Shown: positions 35,986-46,238 of the stretch, piece after piece | Numbering within the stretch: the stretch's first letter is position 1 | How the letters are laid out: each line of letters starts with the position of its first letter | Origin: an uncultured delta proteobacterium | GTDB lineage: Bacteria; Myxococcota_A; Polyangia; Fen-1088 | Direction of reading: 5' to 3' | DNA length: 64,000 nt | Assembly (NCBI GenBank): GCA_963796685.1 | Contig: CAWCMR010000025.1 | Coordinates: 1,504,001-1,568,000 of the forward strand | Position numbers and translations under genes: made by a program | Notes under the pieces: generated by a model | The model's database searches: none | What the model was told of the DNA's origin: nothing | What the model saw: only the letters and a program-made list of their open reading frames with translations

Positions 35986-36778
35986 GATGGGAACCCTCAA
36001 AGGGTTCCCAAACCCTCCCGCGCTCTGGCGGAGCCAGGCGAGGGCGAGGGCGAAGCCCGAGGTGGAGGTAGGGTGGGCAGGCGGGTCCCGAGGCCCGGCT
36101 CCGCCAACGCGGAAGATGGGAACTCCCCCTGAAACCACCTCTGAAACACCTCGCCCCGCGCAGCGGGGAGAGGTCGCCGAGCGCAGCGAGGCGGGTGAGG
36201 GGTAGTCACCTTTCACGCCAGAAGGATCCGGTTCTCGCTCCTCACCTTGTGGTGCCCCTCACCCTGTCCCTCTCCCCGGCTGACGCCGGGGCGAGGGGAC
36301 CTGCCTGTTGGATCCCTCCACGAGGACGCGATCTTGTGGAACCGCCCGAACGCCGTCTCGTGCCGAGCGCAGCGAGGCGGGTGAGGGGTAGTCACCTTTC
36401 ACGCCAGAAGGATCCGGTTCTCGCTCCTCACCTTGTGGTGCCCCTCACCCTGTCCCTCTCCCCGGCTGACGCCGGGGCGAGGGGACCTGCCTGTTGGATC
36501 CCTCCACGAGGACGCGATCTTGTGGAACCGCCCGAACGCCGTCTCGTGCCGAGCGCAGCGAGGCGGGTGAGGGGTAGTCACCTTTCACGCCAGAAGGATC
36601 CGGTTCTCGCTCCTCACCTTGTGGTGCCCCTCACCCTGTCCCTCTCCCCGGCTGACGCCGGGGCGAGGGGACCTGCCTGTTGGATTCCTCCACGAGGACG
36701 CGATCTTGTGGAACCGCCCGAACGCCGTCTCGTGCCGAGCGCAGCGAGGCGGGTGAGCATCTGTGTTCCTAGTCAAGG

Positions 36779-38023
<1,245 letters not shown>

Positions 38024-39396
38024 TCACGCCAGAAGGATCCGGTTCTCGCTCCTCACCTTGTGGTGCCCCTCACCCTGTCCCTCTCCCCGGCTGACGCCGG
38101 GGCGAGGGGACCTGCCTGTTGGATTCCTCCACGAGGACGCGATCTTGTGGAACCGCCCGAACGCCGTCTCGTGCCGAGCGCAGCGAGGCGGGTGAGGGGT
38201 AGTCACCTTTCACGCCAGAAGGATCCGGTTCTCGCTCCTCACCTTGTGGTGCCCCTCACCCTGTCCCTCTCCCCGGCTGACGCCGGGGCGAGGGGACCTG
38301 CCTGTTGGATCCCTCCACGAGGACGCGATCTTGTGGAACCGCCCGAACGCCGTCTCGTGCCGAGCGCAGCGAGGCGGGTGAGGGGTAGTCACCTTTCACG
38401 CCAGAAGGATCCGGTTCTCGCTCCTCACCTTGTGGTGCCCCTCACCCTGTCCCTCTCCCCGGCTGACGCCGGGGCGAGGGGACCTGCCTGTTGGATTCCT
38501 CCACGAGGACGCGATCTTGTGGAACCGCCCGAACGCCGTCTCGTGCCGAGCGCAGCGAGGCGGGTGAGGGGTAGTCACCTTTCACGCCAGAAGGATCCGG
38601 TTCTCGCTCCTCACCTTGTGGTGCCCCTCACCCTGTCCCTCTCCCCGGCTGACGCCGGGGCGAGGGGACCTGCCTGTTGGATTCCTCCACGAGGACGCGA
38701 TCTTGTGGAACCGCCCGAACGCCGTCTCGTGCCGAGCGCAGCGAGGCGGGTGAGGGGTAGTCACCTTTCACGCCAGAAGGATCCGGTTCTCGCTCCTCAC
38801 CTTGTGGTGCCCCTCACCCTGTCCCTCTCCCCGGCTGACGCCGGGGCGAGGGGACCTGCCTGTTGGATTCCTCCACGAGGACGCAATCTTGTGGAACCGC
38901 CCGAACGCCGTCTCGTGCCGAGCGCAGCGAGGCGGGTGAGGGGTAGTCACCTTTCACGCCAGAAGGATCCGGTTCTCGCTCCTCACCTTGTGGTGCCCCT
39001 CACCCTGTCCCTCTCCCCGGCTGACGCCGGGGCGAGGGGACCTGCCTGTTGGATCCCTCCACGAGGACGCGATTTTGTGGAACCGCCCGAACGCCGTCTC
39101 GTGCCGAGCGCAGCGAGGCGGGTGAGGGGTAGTCACCTTTCACGCCAGAAGGCTCCGGTTCTCGCTCCTCACCTGAAGCACCTCGCGCTGCGAAGCGGGG
39201 AATGTCCCGGCTGACGCCGGGGCGAGGGGACCTGCCTGTTGGATCCCTCCACGAGGACGCGATCTTGTGGAATCGTTCGAACGCCCCTCGCGCCGAGCGC
39301 AGCGAGGCGGGCAAGGGCACGGTCTGTCGTGCCGTCGAATCTTGTCGTGCTCCTTCGCCTTTGGGGGCGAGCGTAGCCCAGCTTTGCTGGGCGAAG

Positions 39397-41471
39397 GTGC
39401 GTCCGGCATGGACGCAGAACAAGAGGTGAAGCCATGAAATAGCCAAGTCCTCTGGGGACCCTGACGGAGGGAACCTCCCACCTACGAGACAAGGGCGCCG
39501 GTCTGGAGCACCAGGCCAGACGGGCCGCAAGGCCCGTCTCCCGCGAGGAGGTGTCTGGTGGAAGTCTATGGTGCAGCGCCGAACCGAACGAAAGTGAAGC
39601 GCCGTAAGGCGTGGGTACCGCTGGGCAAGCTGGCCTTCGGCGGCAAAGCCCAATATTCGTCGGGCGGCCCGCGTAGTGGCGACGGAGTCGGTGCGAAGTT
39701 CTGCGTTCTTACCCGGAGAGACCTCTTGGCCTCCGCGGCGAGGAATCGCAAGCGGAATTCATCGAGAACGAAAGGACGAGATGAAGAAGGGACAAGAGGA
39801 GTCGGATGGTCGCGTAATACCGGAAGGCCGGCGAAAGCCGGTTCCAACCGCCAGAAGGCGGGGAGGGAAGGCGACCACGGCCAGCAAAGAGGCAAGGCAG
39901 CTCGGACTGTTTCCCGAGACAGCCGACAACCCGAAAGGGACCACCGCCCAAGCGGATCCGGGCCAACCCGTGCCTGCGCGGAGCGAGGTGCCGAAGTCGG
40001 GGAACGAGGAAGAGAGGACCTTGCCGCCCATGACGATGGAGGAGGTAGCGAGCGAAGGAAACCTGAAAAGAGCGTTCGAGCAAGTGAAGGCCAACAAAGG
40101 CGCACCTGGACCGGACCGGCAAAGCGTGGGGGAAGTGGCGAAGGGGTTGGGGACGCTGATACCGGCGCTGTCGCGGTCGCTGCTCGACGGGACATACCGA
40201 GTCGGAGACATCCGGCGGGTATGGATACCGAAGAGCGGTGGCGGGCGGCGGGGCCTTGGCATACCGAACGTGGTGGACCGCGTGGTTCAGCAGGCCGTGC
40301 ACCAAGTGCTCGGTCCGCATTATGAGCCGACGTTTCACCCGTCGAGCCACGGTTTCCGACCTGGGCGCAGCTGTCACACGGCCATCGCCGAGGCCAAGCA
40401 GTATCTGGAGGAAGGGTACGAATGGGTGGTCGACCTCGACCTGGAAAAGTTCTTTGACTGGGTCCACTGGCAACGGCTGGTGGCGCGGCTAGAACAGAGG
40501 GTTAAGGACCGGCGGCTCATCGAGCTCATCTGGCAGATGCTGAAAGCCAAGGTGGTGATGCCCGACGGAGTGGTGGTGGCGACGGAAGAAGGAGTGCCAC
40601 AAGGTGGTCCGCTTTCGCCGTTACTGAGCAATATCGTGCTGGACGAGCTCGACCGCGAGCTTGCCCAACGCGGTCACCGCTTCGTGCGCTATGCGGACGA
40701 CTGCAACATCTACGTCGGAAGCGAGCGCTCGGGTCAGCGTGTGATGGCCAGCGTGGTCAAGTTCATCGAAGGCCGGATGCGGTTGAAGGTGAACTTGGCC
40801 AAGAGCGCGGTGGCCCGACCGGAAGAGCGGCACTTTCTGGGATTCCGGCTGCGGCGCGAGCCGCTGACGGGGGAAGCGGAGGTGCTGCTGTCGGCGCGGA
40901 GCAAAAGCCGCATTGACGAGAAGGTCCGAGAGCTGACGCCGCGAAACCTTGGGCAGTCCCTCAAGGGCTGCATCAAACAGGTCAACGCGTATTTGCTCGG
41001 ATGGATCGGCTTCTTCTGTATCTGCACGGCCGCGGAAGAGCGGACGCTGCAGGCACTCGACGCACACATCAGGCGGCGGCTGCGAGCGATAGTGCTACGG
41101 CACTGGAAACGCAGACGCTTCATCGCACGACACCTCATCAGCCTGGGGGTGAGACCGAAAACCGCGTGGCAAGGGGTCTACAAGGGGCATCGCTCCTGGT
41201 GGGCGCTGAGCCACACATCGGTAGTTGAACGAGGACTGCGCAACGCATATTTTGCCGAACGCGGGCTTGTCAGCCTGGCCGAGCGGTGGAAGGACCATCA
41301 CGCCTTGGACTTCATGGACCCGGCCCTGGAGCCAGGATAGCTGCGGGCAGCAATGCCGGCGCTGGACTACGGGTCGCTCCCGAACGCCAGCGTCCCGAAG
41401 AGCCGGATGTGAGGCCCACAAGTCCGGTTCTGTGAGAGCTGGGGGAGGGTAACCTCCCCTGGCTACTCGAC
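39397..41471 (+). mobile_element. Group II intron, class C-like, apparently full length
   Basis: 5' GTGCGTCCGGCATGG; domain V GAGCCGGATGTG..GTCCGGTTC; domain VI ending CTACTCGAC; ends confirmed by the uninterrupted homolog at 37953/37954. Confidence 0.93.
39781..41340 (+). CDS. ltrA: Group II intron reverse transcriptase/maturase, no endonuclease domain (start may be 40030)
   Basis: NKGAPGPD, RGLGIP..DRVVQQA, GFRPGRS, DLEKFFD, PQGGPLSPLL, RYADD. Confidence 0.95.
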   Translation: MKKGQEESDGRVIPEGRRKPVPTARRRGGKATTASKEARQLGLFPETADNPKGTTAQADPGQPVPARSEVPKSGNEEERTLPPMTMEEVASEGNLKRAFEQVKANKGAPGPDRQSVGEVAKGLGTLIPALSRSLLDGTYRVGDIRRVWIPKSGGGRRGLGIPNVVDRVVQQAVHQVLGPHYEPTFHPSSHGFRPGRSCHTAIAEAKQYLEEGYEWVVDLDLEKFFDWVHWQRLVARLEQRVKDRRLIELIWQMLKAKVVMPDGVVVATEEGVPQGGPLSPLLSNIVLDELDRELAQRGHRFVRYADDCNIYVGSERSGQRVMASVVKFIEGRMRLKVNLAKSAVARPEERHFLGFRLRREPLTGEAEVLLSARSKSRIDEKVRELTPRNLGQSLKGCIKQVNAYLLGWIGFFCICTAAEERTLQALDAHIRRRLRAIVLRHWKRRRFIARHLISLGVRPKTAWQGVYKGHRSWWALSHTSVVERGLRNAYFAERGLVSLAERWKDHHALDFMDPALEPG

Positions 41472-41574
41472 CGAGGGGGGACCGGGGGACTGCGAGCGAG
41501 AGCGAGCCAGTCCCCCGTAAGATACAAGGGGTTCCCGTCAACCGCCGGGGGAACCTGCGCTAGACTGACATCCG

Positions 41575-42099
41575 ATGAGCATCGGCAAGCGACTTTTCAA
41601 TCTGGCGAAATCGGAGCTGAATTCGCTTCTCGATCGCGCCGTCGAGGCGGAGCAGGTGGTGGCCCCTGGCCGCGATCCCGACGAGGATCTGTACCGCCGC
41701 TTCAGCCTGGACGAGCTCACCGACAAAGAGCTGGAGGCCGAAATCGAACGGCGCCATCGCGAGCGGGCGAAGGCCGCTGCGAGCCGCTCCCGTCCCGCTG
41801 GCAAGCCGGCGGCCGGGGCACCAGCCTCGGACAAGCCCGGGCCGGACAACGCCCGCGCGTCCAATGGCACTCAGGCGCGCAAGCCCTCGCCTGACGACGA
41901 GCTTCGGCGTGCCTACGCGGCCCTTGAAGTCCCGTTCGGCTCCGACTTCGCGACGGTTCGCAAGTCGTACCGGGTGCTCATGCGCAAGTACCACCCCGAC
42001 CGGCACGCCAGCTCGCCCGAGAAACAGAAGGCCGCCACCGAGCTGGCGCAGAAACTCTCGGCGGCCTACCAGCTCATCGAGCAGCACGCGCGCAAGTGA
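41575..42099 (+). CDS. DnaJ-domain protein (C-terminal J domain)
   Basis: YRVLMRKYHPD. Confidence 0.85.
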   Translation: MSIGKRLFNLAKSELNSLLDRAVEAEQVVAPGRDPDEDLYRRFSLDELTDKELEAEIERRHRERAKAAASRSRPAGKPAAGAPASDKPGPDNARASNGTQARKPSPDDELRRAYAALEVPFGSDFATVRKSYRVLMRKYHPDRHASSPEKQKAATELAQKLSAAYQLIEQHARK

Positions 42100-45787: not shown

Positions 45788-46238
45788 TGTCGCCGGACCC
45801 GAAGAACCCCATTTCGTAGGGTTCAGCCTGCGCCGAGAGGCGAAGGACGGACACGTCGAGGTGGTTCGGGCGGGGCTGCACGGAAGCCATCGTGCGAACG
45901 CCACACGGATTCGATGCGCACATCAGTCGGCGACTGCGCGCTCTGGTGCTCAAACAGTGGAAGCGCAAGCGCTTCATTGCTCGTCGGCTCATCCGGATGG
46001 GACGCTCGACCGAGCATACTTCACGGGGTGCGGCTTGCTGTCCTTGGAGCAGTACTACCGCGACATGCATCGGCTCGTCGTTCCGGCCCAGCCCTGTCTG
46101 GACCTGGGATAGCTGCGGGCGGAAACGCCGGCGCTGGACTACGGGCTTGTCCCGGACGCCAGCGTCCCGAAGAGCCGGATGTAAGGCCCACAAGTTCTGT
46201 GAGAGCTGGGGGAGGGCAACCTCCCCTGGCTACTCGAC
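45788..46238 (+). pseudogene. Deleted 3' remnant of a related group IIC intron
   Basis: Fragments PEEPHFVGFSLRR and DAHISRRLRALVLKQWKRKRFI; domain V/VI nearly identical to 41398-41471. Confidence 0.85.

Follow-up and report, generated by a model that had tools for sequence, protein, structure and literature searches.

A group IIC intron at a hairpin in the left end of an IS110-family element, very probably one landing site among several in a recent spread

Group II introns of class C (IIC) have their place behind terminator motifs "or other inverted repeats" (PMC1702495) and are also found at attC sites (PMC4424553). Insertion sequences (ISs) as intron targets are a widely used strategy of group II introns, with partial occupancy of the available copies (PMC3522654). 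We analyzed one window, the whole 64,000-nucleotide (nt) stretch at positions 1,504,001 to 1,568,000 (forward strand) of contig CAWCMR010000025.1 in the GenBank assembly GCA_963796685.1, from an uncultured delta proteobacterium. In this window, a complete IIC intron splits a copy of the left end of an IS110-family element. Very probably, the intron belongs to a recent spread of a class C intron by the usual route, into hairpins in multi-copy repeats, one of which is the IS110 leader. The pattern of insertions points to opportunistic hairpin targeting, a known IIC behavior.

Copies of the intron were collected across the source assembly (26 contigs, 7.3 Mb, 88.6% complete, 6.5% contamination). 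Eleven are full-length, at 99.85-100% identity, and a predicted hairpin ends 0-4 nt before the intron in all 10 with a readable 5' flank (six copies have a gap of 4 nt, two a gap of 2 nt, and one copy each a gap of 1 nt and of 0 nt). The 10 placed copies fall in six multi-copy repeat families, and a T run is absent after every hairpin used. Only the last 3-4 exon nt (NRRG) are common between the site families, with no intron-binding site 2 (IBS2); the variants at intron-binding site 1 (IBS1) are GAAG, GGAG, GAGG, AGAG, ATAG and TAGG, and the first 3'-exon base (IBS3) is C in eight of 10 copies and A in two. When sites were counted with up to 4 substitutions allowed in 30 nt, occupancy was 2/12 for the IS110 leader, 2/48 for type b, 2/31 for type c (the same repeat family as the source of the IS110 target), 1/30 for type d, 2/8 for type e and 1/2 for type f. 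An earlier reading of the window, made from the letters alone and referred to here as the sequence-only reading, had proposed the IS110 leader hairpin as a distinct target class. With two of 10 copies in IS110 and six repeat families in use, that proposal is not supported; insertion after varied hairpins is largely the outcome that the sequence-only reading had itself named as speaking against it.

The intron reads cleanly at both ends. On the plus strand, the 5' junction (39396/39397) joins the exon end GCCCAGCTTTGCTGGGCGAAG to the intron start GTGCGTCCGG, which begins GTGCG; the 3' junction (41471/41472) joins the intron terminus CTACTCGAC (longer read GGCTACTCGAC) to the 3' exon start CGAGGGGGGACC, placing IBS3 as the C at 41472. 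The Rfam model RF02001 matches domains 1 to 4 (D1-D4) at 39537-39707 with 79.7 bits (gathering threshold 32), and the RF00029 match to D5/D6, above its gathering threshold of 40 bits, stops at the last intron base. The encoded reverse transcriptase (RT) holds the Pfam domains RVT_1 and GIIM (group II maturase) and nothing else, thus lacking an endonuclease domain, and keeps the YADD motif. Among solved structures (Protein Data Bank), its top match is the GsI-IIC RT (7e-109), followed by 7uim (5.6e-87) and by 5hhj and 5hhl (both about 1e-69), which we take to be IIC proteins. LtrA (IIA, 4e-37) and 6me0 (2e-22), presumably a IIB RT, match more weakly. This ranking of similarities, as distinct from a tree, supports placing the RT in the class C lineage. 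In the Rfam D1-D4 alignment, the candidate exon-binding site 1 (EBS1), CUUC, falls in the 8-nt loop that caps a domain 1 hairpin, and the first 394 nt of the intron contain no other CUUC; we take it and the GAAG that ends the 5' exon as the EBS1/IBS1 pair.

At the insertion point, GAAG forms the 4-nt gap between the last paired base of the target hairpin and the intron. Aligned with the left end of an intact IS110-family element in the same window, the two exons cover its outermost 136 nt, and the alignment breaks exactly at 37953/37954, with 96% identity over 83 nt on the 5' side and 100% over 59 nt on the 3' side. The intron precisely interrupts a repeated sequence, and chance resemblance is ruled out. 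Its host is a solo left-end module of 136 nt, without a transposase, placed at the end of an array of 186-bp tandem repeats. The unoccupied site in the intact IS lies 1.4 kb away. A gene for a DnaJ-domain protein (41575-42099) begins about 47 nt past the outer end of the intron-bearing module on the same strand, so the module and its intron occupy the region upstream of that gene. Coordinates are collected in Table 1.

Table 1. Positions of the intron, its host module, the intact IS110-family element and predicted RNA features in the window.
Feature	Position	Strand	Basis or remark
Complete group IIC intron	39397..41471	+	2,075 nt, GTGCG...CGAC; Rfam RF02001 and RF00029
Intron domains V and VI	41398..41471	+	RF00029, 46.6 bits, model positions 1-77
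Intron-encoded reverse transcriptase/maturase	40030..41340	+	Open frame from 39676; ATG codons at 39781 and 40030
Candidate EBS1 (CUUC)	39635..39638	+	Sole CUUC in 39397-39790; domain 1 hairpin loop
IBS1 (GAAG), taken as EBS1 partner	39393..39396	+	Pairs with CUUC 39635-39638; NRRG at the same place in other copies
Target hairpin GCCCAGC-TTT-GCTGGGC, 5' exon	39376..39392	+	7-bp stem, 3-nt loop
Inner part of solo IS110 left-end module (5' exon)	39316..39396	-	96% identical to 37871-37953; AG/CT core 39314-39315
Outer part of solo left-end module (3' exon)	41472..41526	-	100% identical to 37954-38008; AG/CT core 41527-41528
Intact IS110-family element	36758..38008	-	CT cores 36756-36757 and 38009-38010; sits at a tandem-array unit junction
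IS110 recombinase gene, 316 aa	36779..37729	-	Pfam DEDD_Tnp_IS110 and Transposase_20
Same hairpin in intact IS	37933..37949	+	Empty intron site 37953/37954 = left-end nt 57/56
Conserved two-hairpin leader module	37921..38006		Intron site between both hairpins; paired-cell covariation
Predicted bridge RNA	37757..37888	-	Target-binding and donor-binding loops; fold, guide matches, covariation
Target-binding loop guides (predicted)	LTG 37869-37877; RTG 37844-37851	-	Matches to target halves
Donor-binding loop guides (predicted)	LDG 37802-37808; RDG candidate 37757-37765	-	RDG is a discontinuous candidate only
186-bp tandem array	38009..39311 (7 units) and 36176-36757 (3 units)		Unit junctions carry the IS110 target
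LTG, RTG: left and right target guides; LDG, RDG: left and right donor guides.

The intact element belongs to the IS110 family by its recombinase and its ends. The recombinase carries a DEDD RuvC-like domain (PF01548, 5e-23) and a Transposase_20 domain (PF02371, 1.5e-16), and the assembly holds seven full copies with common ends, each in different flanks. All seven lie within repeat elements, flanked by CC-CT on one side and CT-CACCC on the other, and have no terminal inverted repeats. We rejected the possibility that the outer left end was a separate repeat, present beforehand, next to which the IS inserted, the seven copies being 100% identical through it. This stretch belongs to the IS because the copies agree there while their flanks differ, and because IS relatives with 65-68% identity carry it too. 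One of the seven copies, on contig C11 (74.6-78.0 kb), is split by the intron at the identical site and is otherwise 100% identical to the other six. The tandem array in the window consists of ten 186-bp units at 96-99% identity whose junctions carry the target CCC-CT-CACCC; the full IS occupies one of these junctions and the solo module the last one. Each array unit also gives a match to the Rfam family Antizyme_FSE, weak and below threshold, which looks spurious.

Folding of the 280-nt left end (minus strand) together with the guide matches places a predicted bridge RNA at about left-end nt 119-260 on the minus strand. A stem (nt 122-132/169-179) would enclose an internal loop whose 5' side carries the LTG GATGCCCCT (nt 133-141), identical to the target's left half and core together, and whose 3' side carries the RTG GGGTGAGC (nt 159-166), the reverse complement of the core plus the right half. 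The LDG, ACAGATG (nt 202-208), is identical to the right end of the IS. In three IS relatives (65-68% identity), these guide segments change together with their partners. For the LTG, CAACC goes with target TAACC or AAACC and TTGCC with TAGCC; for the RTG, GGGAGAG goes with CTCTCCC and GCGGGAG with CTCCCGC; and for the LDG, ACAGCTT goes with a right end of ACAGCTT. All three guides covary in the relatives from the genomes G015 and G010, and the LTG does so in the relative from G042 too.

The intron site, at left-end nt 56/57, lies upstream of the predicted bridge RNA, between hairpins at nt 12-44 and nt 61-77. A promoter scan of the integrated IS found none. When the IS ends are joined as in an excised circle, a promoter TTGACT-17-TATCTT is predicted, with its -10 element at left-end nt 5-10, and a circle-junction promoter has been described for IS110 elements (PMC11208160). 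If the predicted junction promoter is used, both hairpins would form part of a transcribed leader; the label "leader hairpin" is reasonable because the hairpin lies between that promoter and the target-binding loop. Because the transposase gene reads along the minus strand and the intron along the plus strand, the two are antisense to each other, and by the same geometry the intron is antisense to the predicted bridge RNA.

Much of the structural part of the sequence-only reading was borne out by this work. Rfam, the RT ranking and direct reading of the junctions confirm a group IIC intron 4 nt after a perfect hairpin, and the alignment described above recovers the same sequence uninterrupted at 37953/37954 in the intact IS110. 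The orientation antisense to the bridge RNA agrees with predicted guides at nt 133-208 of the minus strand that covary with the flanks in relatives, and the position of the hairpin in the bridge-RNA leader agrees with the predicted junction promoter. A check of EBS1/IBS1 pairing, suggested at the time, returned CUUC at 39635-39638 opposite GAAG at 39393-39396. The claim that the intron sits in an IS110 left end stands as far as the sequence of the left end is concerned, but its host is a solo module without a transposase and not an IS110 element.

The leader module itself is widespread. The outer 85 nt or so of the left end recur across many genomes and genera of the same family, sometimes in tandem and often without a recombinase match nearby. 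Some part of the IS was matched in 23 of 36 same-family genomes, and most of the matches listed span only query positions of about 1160-1256. In an alignment of 23 leader copies from the source genome and 12 related genomes, 98.1% of the cells in the two stems are paired, versus 41-49% with slid partners, and six pairs changed on both sides. The intron site, GRAG/CGAGGGG, is conserved in all 23 copies and in the three IS relatives with 65-68% identity. Together, the stem covariation and the conserved site indicate that selection acts on the hairpin as a structure and that, as a landing site, it is widely available. Within this survey of leaders, the hairpin is occupied by the intron solely in the source genome. 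G-T cells in the conserved hairpins number four on the plus strand versus two on the minus strand, which is not decisive for the strand, and a search of Rfam left the module unmatched.

Solo left-end modules of 136-146 nt recur in the source assembly, in the window and at C25:1109417-1109562, C25:234099-234240 and C8:212939-213085. On the inner side they stop at the CT within the predicted left target guide (GATGCCC-CT), which is fused to a normal right target half. A same-genus genome (G002, contig C21, locus L137) shows a full IS joined to a module at the guide CT, in the order target-CT-module-CT-IS-CT-target. These boundaries suggest that the solo modules arise when recombination takes place at the target copy encoded in the guide or, alternatively, that the module moves on its own, as reported for ISPpu9 (PMC12288879).

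Relatives of the intron are rare close to the source genome. A search of 40 related genomes with the intron DNA gave one full-length relative (78% identity; another family of the same class) and, in one genome, a 197-nt fragment of the 5' end; both follow other hairpins. None of 12 same-genus genomes held a full-length relative in this search. The same-genus genome G002 carries six copies of the IS at 99% identity, none interrupted by the intron, and the same-genus genome G001 carries one full-length copy, also uninterrupted. With the IS uninterrupted and the intron rare in relatives, the intron looks to have arrived recently in a genome that already held the IS.

More distant relatives were surveyed through the RT, taking the best 80 of at least 592 confirmed relatives (43-71% identity). 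None of the 80 loci had the intron inside an IS110 left end, in a search that solo left-end pieces would escape; the enrichment of IS110 left ends among RT homologs that the sequence-only reading anticipated is thus absent from these loci. Inverted repeats are present in all 10 of the 5' exons that were folded. Searches with the ends of the intron (nhmmer) aligned the closest relatives only (15 and 10 matches), and a scan of metagenome junctions with a loose pattern (80 loci) gave no leader module and no intron-like continuation among the 81 matches listed, a result that carries no weight as evidence of absence. A single-sequence phmmer search, which found IS110 genes near two of the 80 loci, was too insensitive and was replaced by profile scans. 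The Pfam scan covered 215 flanking frames, each 240 aa or longer and no more than 1.5 kb from the estimated intron ends, at 68 of the 80 loci, with one frame (L053:461-1666) added by hand from outside that range; it gave five IS110 matches. An iterated hidden Markov model run over all frames of at least 70 aa in the 80 loci gave eight IS110-family frames in seven loci.

These seven loci differ in arrangement. At L049, the IS ends about 55 nt beyond the 3' end of the intron, judged by some 20 other copies in that genome. L099 (2040-3745) shows the reverse nesting, an IS110-family element inserted antisense inside a IIC intron, between domains 1-3 and the RT gene of a distant relative, and L100 probably has the same arrangement. 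At L068, L032, L053 and L089, a recombinase frame lies 1.2-1.7 kb from the estimated end of the intron, the distance running to the frame and not to an end of the IS. Among the 215 flanking frames (loci L021-L100), we also counted 14 matches to Phage_integrase and eight to Y2_Tnp (IS91-type), alongside the five to IS110. Integrase and IS91-type frames exceed those of IS110, indicating that IIC relatives often adjoin other mobile elements.

Three further observations concern intron copies in the source assembly. At C8:379444-383672, two copies stand 79 nt apart in successive units of a 79-bp tandem repeat that bears a hairpin, and contig C25 (481403-485921) holds another pair, 368 nt apart. The window itself contains a 5'-truncated remnant of a related IIC intron (45880-46238), comprising the C-terminal part of an RT and domains V/VI, with part of domain V deleted. 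Compared with the final 146 nt of the full intron, its 3' piece (46098-46238) shows 87.7% identity.

The mechanism would be that of published IIC introns. By retromobility, presumably, the intron ribonucleoprotein would recognize a hairpin in single-stranded DNA together with a 3-4-nt IBS1 of the form NRRG (facing the CUUC of EBS1) and one 3'-exon base, and the intron would reverse-splice just downstream of the hairpin. The leader would offer such a hairpin followed by GAAG/C on the strand antisense to the bridge RNA. The orientation of the intron would be fixed because only the plus strand has GAAG after the stem; the minus strand has TACG. With the site in the antisense strand of the leader, the intron cannot be spliced from a transcript of the IS. 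In the occupied full IS, a 2-kb antisense insert of this kind would separate the junction promoter from both bridge RNA and recombinase, and we infer that it would lower the expression of both from that copy. The six intact sister copies could supply bridge RNA and recombinase in trans; for IS621, the bridge RNA acts in trans (PMC11208160). The occupied full IS is present once and so gives no sign of having moved since insertion.

Might the intron instead be specialized on the IS110 leader as a dedicated homing site, riding IS110, with its insertions at other hairpins ectopic? Two leader sites are occupied, of which one lies in a full IS that is 100% identical to the others apart from the intron, the landing site is shared by the 23 modules from 13 genomes and the three IS relatives, and a bridge RNA that acts in trans (PMC11208160) means that an intron-bearing IS might still move. 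Set against these points, eight of the 10 placed copies lie in five other repeat families, 10 of the 12 leader sites are empty, and the intron-bearing full IS is a single copy. Among the RT relatives, moreover, none of the 80 loci lies in an IS110 left end, the nearest (L049) being 55 nt outside, and the intron is missing from the six IS copies of G002 and the full-length copy of G001. We regard such specialization as very improbable. Another version takes the leader as a mobile module that spreads via the guide CT and carries a conserved IIC landing site, with the antisense intron silencing its copy in cis and riding IS110 by way of trans factors. We consider this version unlikely, and give low odds to the intron hitchhiking on or disabling IS110 elements. 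The two leader insertions could also go back to one event, the module in the window being what remains of a full IS with the intron, which would have transposed and afterwards shed its recombinase portion. The solo modules do stop exactly at the guide CT, as recombinase-mediated loss of the IS predicts, and the same-genus genome with a module and a full IS joined at the guide CT fits as well. However, the two introns differ at positions 845 and 1064, with each haplotype found in other copies too, and over 83 nt the module in the window carries three substitutions private to it, besides having an inner junction that diverges; the full IS, by contrast, matches the other six exactly. Given these haplotypes and substitutions in the host, the insertions are probably separate, independent events, and a single origin is distinctly improbable.

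An assembly artefact, with contigs misjoined through the 2-kb intron repeat, has to be weighed as well. In this draft assembly of metagenome style, both the intron and the IS recur as near-identical copies, and one intron copy ends a contig. Yet the halves of the host module fit one locus, its inner end meeting the last array unit at the CT core and its outer end meeting unique DNA at the CT core beside CCC, as at other insertion sites; a chimera would, in any case, still require an intron at a leader hairpin at each junction. A misjoin is barely credible. Some of our own data weigh against a spread through hairpins at large. The conservation of GRAG/CGAGGGG across the IS clade and its dispersed copies leaves room for some preference of the intron for the leader, and the leader, which supplies 12 of about 131 counted sites, took two of the 10 copies, somewhat more than proportionate. 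For two or more of 10 copies in that share, an approximate binomial estimate gives P = 0.23, which is weak either way because the site families were defined from occupied sites. The eleventh copy starts at a contig edge and its 5' flank is unreadable, and all copy numbers are lower bounds because the assembly is an incomplete and contaminated draft in 26 contigs. The RT frame is intact in seven of the 11 copies, and the single-base insertions that break it in the other four could be real or sequencing errors.

A recent spread into hairpins of multi-copy repeats provides a clean natural burst of a IIC intron, and a single genome allows filled sites to be set beside empty ones in six repeat families. 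The case also shows that another retroelement can strike a bridge-RNA IS in its non-coding leader. If the insertion lowers bridge-RNA expression, the split copy would be a natural case of one mobile element shutting off another. We judge two by-products to be more useful: an annotation of the bridge RNA in a GC-rich IS110 clade, backed by covariation, and the solo left-end modules that end at a guide-encoded CT. Our literature search, with subscription journals and supplementary files outside it, found no published IIC intron in an IS110 leader.

Among described introns, the closest are B.h.I1 and GsI-IIC, class C introns that likewise combine a compact ribozyme with an RT lacking an endonuclease domain. 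The present intron also resembles them in its site, just past an inverted repeat and marked by a short IBS1 and one IBS3 base, and in having many near-identical copies in one genome. Unlike terminator-sited IIC introns, it uses hairpins in dispersed or tandem repeats or in an IS leader and not those of gene terminators. E.c.I4 and c-Ha.de.I1 home by long sequence-specific recognition; here, in contrast, recognition appears to be hairpin-based, at a site in a non-coding leader and on its antisense strand. What they share with our intron is the use of IS copies as multi-copy, non-essential sites that are partly occupied (IS629 and IS911 for E.c.I4, an ISPlu15-like element for c-Ha.de.I1, and here two of 12 leader sites) (PMC3522654).

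Two further systems bear on the landing site and on the module. Like the IIC-attC introns of the S.ma.I2 lineage, our intron has landed in structured, recombination-related DNA of another mobile system (PMC4424553). Unlike them, it does so in the absence of an integron, its host being an IS110 bridge-RNA leader, and its lineage uses other sites too. Like ISPpu9 with its ssr9 module, the IS110 element here has a sub-module that also occurs alone in the genome (PMC12288879). The module differs from that of ISPpu9 in being the left end, with an inner boundary at the CT of the predicted left target guide. Taken together, IS110-specific targeting is not supported, the behavior of the intron fits published IIC biology, and the IS110 leader is a new instance of it.

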